The notes: generated by a model not told the origin, from the sequence alone. A stretch of 64,000 bases of DNA from a virus (IMGVR_UViG_3300024270_000052), one strand, 5' to 3'; counted from the first letter of the stretch, positions 36,684-37,547 are shown. Translations and numbers: made by a program.

Positions 36684-37547
36684 TTATACATAAATAAATT
36701 GTTCAATATAATTTCTATCTTCGCCTTTAAAAATAGGAATATTCAAATCAATTTCCCATTTCCAGTGTCTTTGCGCAACTTGGACTGGGCCACCCCATTC
36801 AGATTCATGTTCAATAAATTCAATTTTATCAGGAACTTTAATGCAACAAGCACCACGTTTTAAATGAGTTGGATAGTCATTCCAATTAATACTTTTCTGA
36901 AGCATTAGCATATCTTGAATGTCATTACAAGATTTGTTCTGAAGCTCTTTGTGAGAGAAATTAGCTTGGCCAACCATCTGGATGGAGTTGCGAGAAGCGT
37001 CAAGCTGACGCCAATAGATTAGATTAGCTACTTCTTCTTTTGGAATATTAAAACAACGGGCATCAAACATTGCGCCTTTATACTCCGAATCGCGATATGC
37101 TTGATAATATTCTACTTGAGGGTCATTGGGAAAAACATGATTATAATAAAATTTATCAACTTCAGTTTTAAAAAACTTATTAAAAGCCATAGTTGCCATA
37201 GAAGCGGCGATAGAGCACATCTTTTGAATTTCATAATTAAACCAAGCATCTGTTGTCAATGTTTGATAATCAATTAAAATTAAAGTAATTTCATCCGATT
37301 GCGTATAACCAAGTACACAACCTTGAATATTTTCACAAAGATATTTCATAGTATCTCGCATTGCTTTTCCCAACACTTCATCAAACGGTTTCTTAAAACC
37401 TTTAGTAAAGGTATGAAATGCTTTACCATCAAGACGAATTGCTACAGGAGTGCGGCGTGTCAAACGAAACTTGGGGACTTGTTCATAGAATTCTTTCATG
37501 CGAGTCCCGAGGTCATCATGTACAGGCATCATATTATTTCCTTTCAT
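36684..37547 (-). CDS. Thg1-like protein (tRNA 3'-5' nucleotidyltransferase / tRNA 5'-end repair)
   Basis: 'VAIRLDGKAFHTFTKGFKKPFDEVL...GYTQSDEITLIL...IYWRQLDAS' aligns with human Thg1 'VVVRLDGRNFHRF...KPND...YGQSDEYSFVF...YLSWRQADCH'. Confidence 0.75.
   Translation of the reverse strand: MKGNNMMPVHDDLGTRMKEFYEQVPKFRLTRRTPVAIRLDGKAFHTFTKGFKKPFDEVLGKAMRDTMKYLCENIQGCVLGYTQSDEITLILIDYQTLTTDAWFNYEIQKMCSIAASMATMAFNKFFKTEVDKFYYNHVFPNDPQVEYYQAYRDSEYKGAMFDARCFNIPKEEVANLIYWRQLDASRNSIQMVGQANFSHKELQNKSCNDIQDMLMLQKSINWNDYPTHLKRGACCIKVPDKIEFIEHESEWGGPVQVAQRHWKWEIDLNIPIFKGEDRNYIEQFIYV

Follow-up and report, generated by a model that had tools for sequence, protein, structure and literature searches.

The Thg1-like protein of Bacillus thuringiensis (BtTLP; PDB 4KGK/4KGM; Hyde et al. 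2013, PMC3701042) has as its preferred in vitro activity the templated repair of 5′-truncated tRNAs with ATP or GTP, and its kinetics favour truncated tRNAs over full-length tRNA-His, while the published suggestions about the role of bacterial Thg1-like proteins (TLPs) stop at tRNA or RNA quality control (PMC3701042). In the complex of the Methanosarcina acetivorans TLP (MaTLP) with tRNA-Phe lacking G1 (PDB 5AXK-5AXN; Kimura et al. 2016, PMC4820378), binding is independent of the anticodon: a dimer docks onto both acceptor stem and elbow, and a flexible, poorly conserved C-terminal β-hairpin binds the elbow and acts as a ruler that gauges the length of the acceptor stem. Eukaryotic Thg1, finally, has the eukaryote-specific motif HINNLYN, which reads the tRNA-His anticodon, its His stacking on base G36 (PMC6471195). 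Here, we discuss a gene of this kind on the minus strand (36684..37547) of a 64,000-nucleotide stretch of viral DNA (IMGVR_UViG_3300024270_000052), which as a whole we call the window, and which comes from a large gut phage encoding tail fibres, topoisomerase II, an NAD-dependent DNA ligase, DnaB and RecJ. Judged by its sequence, the gene genuinely belongs to the Thg1/TLP superfamily and, within it, to the bacterial repair type, and its product is apparently a catalytically intact reverse (3′→5′) RNA polymerase, whose most likely mechanism, by analogy with BtTLP, would be to rebuild 5′-truncated tRNAs by templated 3′→5′ addition.

The gene is an uninterrupted open reading frame of 287 codons, from ATG to TAA, with no in-frame TAG and with TAA as the bounding stop on both sides. 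Translation probably begins only at the sixth codon (ATG 37532), which would give a gene at 36684..37532 and a protein of 282 residues, since a ribosome-binding site, AAAGGAAA, lies ahead of this ATG and homologues begin with MPV or MMPV at this point. The preliminary description of the locus had claimed a Thg1 family member in a phage, and all matches bear this out at levels far above chance. Namely, the Pfam Thg1 profile (PF04446) matches with 102.5 bits against a cutoff of 29.2 (E 2.1e-29), over profile positions 3-130 of 130, PHROG 4717 ('tRNA-His guanylyltransferase') matches with E 9.3e-88, and the closest solved structure by sequence is BtTLP (4KGK; E 9.7e-62 with HMMER, in two stretches covering residues 11-287). 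A search of NCBIfam returned no match, and Pfam Thg1C (PF14413) did not match the C-terminal half of the protein at E ≤ 0.01; this half aligns to BtTLP with 98.6 bits. The motifs quoted in that description are all present in the translation: RLDG at residues 38-41, FHTF at 44-47, KPFD at 53-56, YTQSDE at 81-86 and WRQLD at 179-183. The same description saw in them an unambiguous alignment to eukaryotic Thg1, which holds for the motifs and for the superfamily, but not for the type of enzyme. In the search of PDB sequences, both archaeal TLP (E 2e-10) and eukaryotic Thg1 (E 2.5e-8 to 6e-5) fall far behind BtTLP, the close relatives of the phage protein are bacterial-type TLPs, and the similarity to the human (3OTB, E 3e-5) and yeast (5XOX, E 2.5e-8) enzymes is weak, yet significant.

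The active site argues for an intact enzyme. Catalytic and binding residues were defined from the BtTLP structure paper (PMC3701042), mapped via an HMMER alignment and confirmed in the translation. The three carboxylates, whose loss would have spoken against a Thg1 assignment, are all kept, as D40, D85 and E86 (D30, D75 and E76 in BtTLP; D29, D76 and E77 in the human enzyme), and they are invariant across 52 aligned relatives that are 68-86% identical overall. The activation site is represented by H45, K53, D56 and S84 (BtTLP H35, K43, D46 and S74) and the transfer site by E22, R38, K109, R164 and R180 (BtTLP E12, R28, K99, R131 and R147), with R16 of BtTLP conservatively replaced by K26. The mapped residues, including M191, are invariant or at least 90% conserved among these relatives. 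In other words, the phage TLP matches BtTLP in its three carboxylates, in its activation and transfer residues, and in having Met in place of the eukaryotic Asn. The fold agrees with this picture: an AlphaFold2 model (pLDDT 82.9, pTM 0.81), used for the structural comparison that the preliminary description had proposed, retrieves Thg1/TLP structures as all 32 Foldseek matches in the PDB at E ≤ 0.001, the next match being at E 0.04, and BtTLP comes first (4KGM; E 1e-23, target-normalised TM 0.83, about 42% identity). The phage protein shares its fold with MaTLP as well (E 3e-15).

Eukaryotic Thg1 (human 3OTB, yeast 5XOX, Candida 3WBZ) has in common with the phage protein the superfamily, the palm-like fold and the two-metal carboxylates, but differs exactly where tRNA-His specificity is concerned. 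In particular, residues 185-191 read SRNSIQM where eukaryotes have HINNLYN, and the activation Asn (N161 in yeast, N158 in human) is replaced by Met191, as by M158 in BtTLP. The protein is, moreover, nearer to BtTLP (E 1e-61) than to human Thg1 (E 3e-5), and has a modelled C-terminal β-hairpin. Because HINNLYN is absent and the activation Asn is replaced, we read the gene product as a template-dependent, repair-type TLP and not as a eukaryotic-type tRNA-His guanylyltransferase, and for the same reason non-templated addition of G-1 opposite A73 would not be expected of it. Failing these tests of the eukaryotic type, the protein probably bears a misnomer in its usual database name, tRNA-His guanylyltransferase.

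What, then, would such an enzyme do in an infected cell? By analogy with BtTLP, it would activate an RNA 5′-phosphate with ATP or GTP, then add nucleotides in the 3′→5′ direction, templated by the 3′ strand of the tRNA acceptor stem, and in this way rebuild 5′-truncated tRNAs whatever their identity, with the elongated β-hairpin (residues 233-267) binding the tRNA elbow and serving as the ruler that halts extension at +1. Less firmly, the TLP may be one module of a counter-defence or maintenance toolkit that would keep translation going during host RNA attack or turnover, the other modules being the RNA ligase, polynucleotide kinase, phosphoesterases and NAD+ resynthesis genes discussed below. 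We give this explanation, an intact bacterial-type TLP that rebuilds 5′-truncated tRNAs as part of an infection toolkit, a slightly better than even chance of being right.

Unlike BtTLP, the phage TLP has a helical insertion of roughly 23 residues at 129-158, confidently modelled by AlphaFold2 as a helical hairpin, and a β-hairpin about 14 residues longer (about 237-263), with predicted strands at 233-248 and 254-267. The position of this hairpin is homologous to that of the MaTLP hairpin. The two proteins are only about 23% identical, however, the phage hairpin being longer and hypervariable among relatives, and no equivalent of the conserved MaTLP R215 could be identified in the phage TLP. 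Among the 52 relatives, both segments are hypervariable, with entropies of 2.1-2.6 bits as opposed to 0.36-0.48 bits in the core, and they vary in length as well, while across more distant TLPs they are rich in insertions and deletions. We infer that the catalytic chemistry is fixed in this family, while its substrate-docking surfaces drift.

The gene appears to be well placed for expression. Directly upstream of it lies a predicted promoter, TTGATT-N17-TGATATAAT (37566..37594, minus strand), preceded in turn by an intrinsic-terminator-like hairpin of 9 bp followed by a T-run (37597..37619, minus strand), which ends the upstream unit; a terminator followed by a promoter suggests that the TLP gene opens a new transcript. 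The promoter belongs to a 29-nt motif, TTGATTTTTATAAAAAAATATGATATAAT, with a -35 box TTGATT, a 17-nt spacer and an extended -10 box, of which the window holds 12 near-identical copies, all on the minus strand, while 0.26 would be expected (starting at 1813, 8178, 10606, 13411, 20970, 25145, 29355, 34698, 37566, 43178, 43274 and 45793). Such over-representation argues for a genuine class of phage promoters, likely an early or middle one, and at least the copies at 34698 and 37566 directly follow a terminator-like hairpin. Namely, a second hairpin, of 14 bp (34725..34756, minus strand), would close the transcript that the TLP gene opens, the next promoter copy standing at 34698-34726. The predicted transcript comprises six genes: the TLP gene, a nicotinamidase-like gene, two small genes of no recognised family, an NMN/NaMN adenylyltransferase-like gene and a 55-codon reading frame. 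The TLP gene thus apparently heads an operon with two NAD-salvage genes.

The preliminary description had placed the gene next to an NAD island and an RNA ligase, and as a description of the window this is accurate. The stop codon of the TLP gene is followed after 12 nt by an isochorismatase-family, nicotinamidase (PncA)-like gene (36138..36671; PF00857, 95.7 bits, with a weak nicotinamidase match) and, in the same predicted transcript, by the HIGH-motif nucleotidyltransferase resembling NMN/NaMN adenylyltransferases (34925..35473). Further along the same minus strand come a Macro domain gene (33673-34143), PncB (31239-32462, 497 bits), NadE (30387-31235) and a NADAR domain gene (29951-30412). 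We note that the Preiss-Handler route from nicotinamide to NAD+ appears complete in this stretch (29951-36671, minus strand), with the PncA-like protein, PncB, the NMN/NaMN adenylyltransferase-like protein and NadE. The DNA ligase of the phage (13451-15403, minus strand) is NAD-dependent and may be grouped with the NAD genes. A 25-kb island searched by megablast against GenBank phages gave no match at the DNA level.

Genes reminiscent of RNA repair lie on the same strand as the TLP gene: an RNA ligase, a polynucleotide-kinase-like P-loop protein, three metallophosphoesterases, a cREC domain and an RNase T-like exonuclease. The RNA ligase (39521..40927; phrog_968, E 2.5e-57; PF09414 at 23.1 bits, under the 27-bit cutoff; a weak DraRnl-type match) is located 2 kb upstream of the TLP gene in the neighbouring upstream transcript, has no match among PDB sequences, and is mentioned here as context, with no functional partnership claimed. 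The gene resembling P-loop polynucleotide 5′-kinases (27343..27930, minus strand) is flanked by metallophosphoesterases (28370-29053 and 26790-27371), and in the PDB matches the 171-aa chains 4GP7/4JST and T4 polynucleotide kinase (1LY1/1LTQ) with E 2e-6 to 6e-3. The former, named just 'Metallophosphoesterase' in the PDB, we take to be the kinase domain of Clostridium thermocellum Pnkp. The candidate heal-and-seal genes (kinase-like, phosphoesterases and ligase) are all found no more than about 20 kb from the TLP gene, but in different transcripts, the ligase scoring below its Pfam cutoff, and fewer than 10% of relatives keep the linkage. A well-known parallel is phage T4, whose Pnkp and Rnl1 heal and seal anticodon-loop breaks in tRNA. 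The window would resemble it in logic, as a putative phage-borne kit for damaged tRNA, with a kinase-like gene, phosphoesterases and an RNA ligase in the same 20-kb region. The chemistry differs, however: T4 repair ligates an internal break, whereas a TLP rebuilds lost 5′ nucleotides by templated polymerisation. To our knowledge, no host nuclease that creates a substrate for a TLP has been described.

Does this neighbourhood mean anything for the function of the TLP? In order to survey it, 27 window proteins were compared by tblastn with, and neighbours clustered all against all in, 80 loci from IMG/VR, namely the 80 closest of 506 contigs, with neighbours taken within 10 kb of the TLP gene. 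Homologues of the PncA-like, NadE, Macro, kinase or RNA-ligase genes occur near the TLP gene in just 6-10 of the 80 loci (about 8-12%), which makes the linkage to the NAD island and the ligase weaker than the preliminary description had suggested. The adjacency to the NAD island is lineage-specific and is weak evidence for functional coupling. In three relatives, about 70% identical (metagenome contigs of 157-186 kb), the TLP gene does sit inside a similar block of NAD and RNA-repair genes, while in another relative it does not. The 80 loci show no universally conserved partner gene, and we therefore reject the idea that the TLP forms a fixed module with the NAD genes or with the ligase. TLP neighbourhoods differ among GenBank phages too, and a context that changes between relatives marks the TLP as a free-standing accessory gene. 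Two side observations belong here. Related contigs carry NAMPT together with a Pribosyltran protein instead, which may be an Adps/Namat-like pair. In addition, an adenylosuccinate-synthetase-like gene of about 363 aa (e.g. L086:5337-6446) precedes the TLP gene by about 3 kb in 21 of the 80 loci; it is absent from the window, and by its N-terminal motif we read it as PurA/PurZ-like, PurZ being the enzyme for 2-aminoadenine genomes.

Several points weigh against tRNA rebuilding as part of an infection toolkit and should be stated together. The most widespread neighbour family near the TLP gene reaches only 27 of the 80 loci, and, given such weak gene linkage, the toolkit interpretation is limited to a single lineage, that of the window. 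Next, as the two hypervariable surface segments are longer than in BtTLP, the substrate choice of the phage enzyme could differ from that of BtTLP. Finally, a literature search found no described anti-phage tRNase that yields 5′-truncated tRNA. Namely, Cas13, PARIS, OLD, PrrC and RloC cut the anticodon arm, Cash the T-loop, type I-A retrons the D-loop, Cas12a3 and HEPN-MNT the CCA tail, and retron Eco2 the 3′ strand of the acceptor stem. The damage that the TLP would repair is consequently hypothetical, and the defence against toxins cleaving the 5′ acceptor stem, suggested in the preliminary description, stays conjectural, the described nucleases cutting elsewhere. One may still speculate that the hosts of these gut Clostridia phages have an undescribed defence or RNA decay activity that shortens tRNAs at the 5′ end or along the 5′ strand of their acceptor stem, and that the abundant phage and prophage TLP clade is a dedicated counter-measure, an idea that we regard as doubtful, though worth stating for its consequences. 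If it were true, the natural role of 'bacterial' TLPs, BtTLP included, would lie in phage-host conflict, and in phages that have recoded TAG the TLP could matter especially for the protection of suppressor tRNA.

Could the enzyme instead serve tRNA-His identity, adding G-1 opposite C73 on a phage tRNA-His whose gene does not encode it, or restoring it on host tRNA-His from which it has been lost? Most of the GenBank phage homologues listed carry the tRNA-His guanylyltransferase label, and templated addition of G-1 opposite C73 is within the reach of TLPs. MaTLP can also bind tRNA-His in a second mode that depends on the anticodon (PMC4820378), and BtTLP can rescue a yeast thg1 deletion (PMC6471195). 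That said, the phage protein lacks both HINNLYN and the activation Asn, BtTLP prefers truncated tRNAs to full-length tRNA-His (PMC3701042), and neither the window nor the flanking regions of 60 relatives yielded a tRNA-His gene. Bacterial tRNA-His genes normally encode G-1, and such an activity would therefore be redundant. All in all, we consider a role in tRNA-His identity unlikely.

A further alternative starts from the genetic code of the phage. The window uses TAG as a sense codon, probably for Gln (genetic code 15). Standard-code gene calls are fragmented in the TAG-containing regions, which on the minus strand include a 561-codon frame with 11 TAGs (21435-23117), whose translation with TAG as Gln matches a VgrG3-like_C domain and the cell-wall hydrolase domain Amidase_2, which identifies it as the endolysin, a flotillin-like gene (25289-26764), whose only TAG falls opposite a Gln in a relative of 62% identity, and the regions 23111-24406, 11769-12758 and 47013-48662, and on the plus strand tail-fibre-like frames with 1-4 TAGs each (53819-56350, 56430-58130 and 58162-60468). 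PIN and PhoH fuse via a TAG, as they do in relatives, and a GIY-YIG gene holds 6 TAGs. Recoding of late genes in large gut phages is a published pattern, and the use of TAG in the window fits it (bioRxiv 10.1101/2021.08.26.457843). The boundaries of the TLP gene are unaffected, as it contains no in-frame TAG and is bounded by TAA stops. For TLP-carrying relatives, a crude frame statistic (38 TAG vs 60 TGA frames) does not discriminate, and we make no claim about their code.

With TAG read as sense in late genes, the phage presumably depends on a suppressor tRNA, and the TLP might mature the phage's own tRNAs, such a suppressor included, by 5′-editing of the kind found in amoebozoan mitochondria, rebuilding 5′ ends that are encoded mismatched or are lost through overlapping genes. 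TLP homologues occur in Prevotella Lak phages, which are TAG-recoded, and 8 of 60 loci from relatives have tRNA arrays no more than 10 kb away from the TLP gene. DdiTLP3, moreover, carries out 5′-editing (PMC6471195). Against this, ARAGORN finds no tRNA gene in the window, in which no suppressor tRNA was found either, and Rfam gives no match there at gathering thresholds, so that no local tRNA substrate can be proposed. Of 27 distinct tRNAs near the TLP genes of relatives, 25 have positions 1-3 fully paired, and among the 27 there are no overlapping genes, no tRNA-His and no CUA suppressor. A TLP-dependent 5′-editing signature was therefore not found in nearby phage tRNAs, and the tRNA maturation role put forward in the preliminary description finds no backing in these data. 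TLP genes are also common in Bacillus phages, which are not known to depart from the standard genetic code. Taken together, maturation of the phage's own tRNAs strikes us as rather improbable. As observations in their own right on these tRNAs (from L013, L018, L034, L035, L058, L062, L071 and other loci), 11 of the 27 start with U1 and the 1:72 pair is a G·U or U·G wobble in 8; in L013 and L058, ARAGORN also reports a tRNA-like gene whose anticodon has just two bases ('tg').

No better placed is the proposal that the TLP acts on RNA 5′ ends other than those of tRNA, to which we likewise assign a low probability. One option would be that it fills gaps in nicked duplex RNA by templated 3′→5′ addition, leaving the neighbouring RNA ligase to seal the strand, and another a chemistry linked to the NAD enzymes, acting on adenylylated, NAD-capped or ADP-ribosylated 5′ ends. 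The co-transcription predicted with the PncA-like and NMNAT-like genes, the position within an NAD gene block in the three related contigs of 157-186 kb, the nearby Macro, NADAR and cREC domains and the insertions at 129-158 and 237-263, which are unlike BtTLP, would all suit it. The substrates of DdiTLP4, furthermore, are non-tRNA (PMC6471195). Yet the case is purely contextual, the linkage is missing in about 90% of close relatives, and the hairpin corresponding to the one that binds the tRNA elbow is kept. We know of no TLP that uses NAD-derived substrates. Least probable by far is that the protein is no longer an active enzyme, but a remnant or a decoy that just binds tRNA or nucleotides. 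Catalytic residues have been lost in a few members of the family, yet the phage TLP keeps all those needed for catalysis and nucleotide binding, the core entropy among the relatives is low, the reading frame is intact and a strong predicted promoter lies ahead of it, and we reject this interpretation on residue conservation. The family members in question are metagenomic, P0200 with N for D40 and K for E86, and P0124 with E for D40, and they suggest that inactive or re-purposed TLP paralogues exist.

Some other genes of the window deserve mention. A major-vault-protein (MVP) homologue of 803 aa (48761-51172, minus strand) has MVP shoulder, Vault_3 and Band_7 domains, and a protein with DUF2828 and DUF7788/VWA domains (61180-62697, minus strand), labelled 'RNA-binding protein' in PHROGs, is in our estimation possibly Ro/TROVE-like. 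Together, the two resemble components of vault or Ro ribonucleoproteins, and an Rfam scan of the window found no Y-RNA-like or vault-RNA-like match. Three genes of the SPFH/Band_7 family stand on the minus strand within 26 kb, a lipoprotein-like one (38044-39027), the flotillin-like one (25289-26764) and the MVP homologue; in Fusobacterium phage Fnu1, a prohibitin-family gene is also close to the TLP gene.

How widespread are such genes? The family counts 5,586 representatives of 50%-identity clusters (E ≤ 1e-3) and 506 IMG/VR contigs, and GenBank phages contribute 164 records with full-length homologues at 29-59% identity (Bacillus 46, Prevotella Lak 15, Caulobacter 13, Mycobacterium 11, and others). 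Among the matches listed, most are annotated as tRNA-His guanylyltransferase and most come from phages over 100 kb; labelled examples are gp147 of Fusobacterium phage Fnu1, gp143 of Bacillus phage Bc431v3 and the 'putative Thg1' of Pseudomonas phage 201phi2-1. The best GenBank phage match to the window TLP is 58.8% identical and belongs to an unannotated faecal contig, and the compared metagenomic proteins reach at most 86% identity. The Thg1-like gene of Bc431v3 was remarked on in 2013 (PMC3601020), and the jumbo-phage survey of Iyer et al. (2021, PMC7824862) lists Thg1 as a sporadic phage RNA-repair enzyme restoring 5′ nucleotides, while in the 2019 review of TLPs (PMC6471195) the word 'virus' is absent and our literature search found no published biochemical assay of any phage TLP. 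The gene of the window is thus new as a sequence, yet of a known kind, as phage Thg1-like genes are already widely annotated.

The closest cellular relatives come from gut Clostridia genomes and metagenome-assembled genomes (55-70% identity), and in the one complete chromosome examined, of Lacrimispora, the phage-family genes around the TLP gene indicate that it is prophage-borne. What is more, BtTLP (4KGK) and gp143 of the lytic Bacillus phage Bc431v3 (L009:5998-6732) share 75% identity over 238 residues. This identity places the 'bacterial' prototype in a phage-associated group, and the repair activity already measured in vitro therefore probably describes a phage-type enzyme; BtTLP itself may be of phage or prophage origin.

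As genome annotation, the present result is an ordinary one, and it reveals no new mechanism. That said, the TLP clade is very large, and its carriers are large phages and, in the one cellular copy examined, a prophage of a gut Clostridia species, while in the lineage of the window the gene is driven by an over-represented promoter motif and predicted to be co-transcribed with NAD-salvage genes. The size of the clade, the identity between BtTLP and a phage protein, and this expression context together make the service of TLPs in phage infection a testable idea. In this sense, TLP biology may be phage biology.

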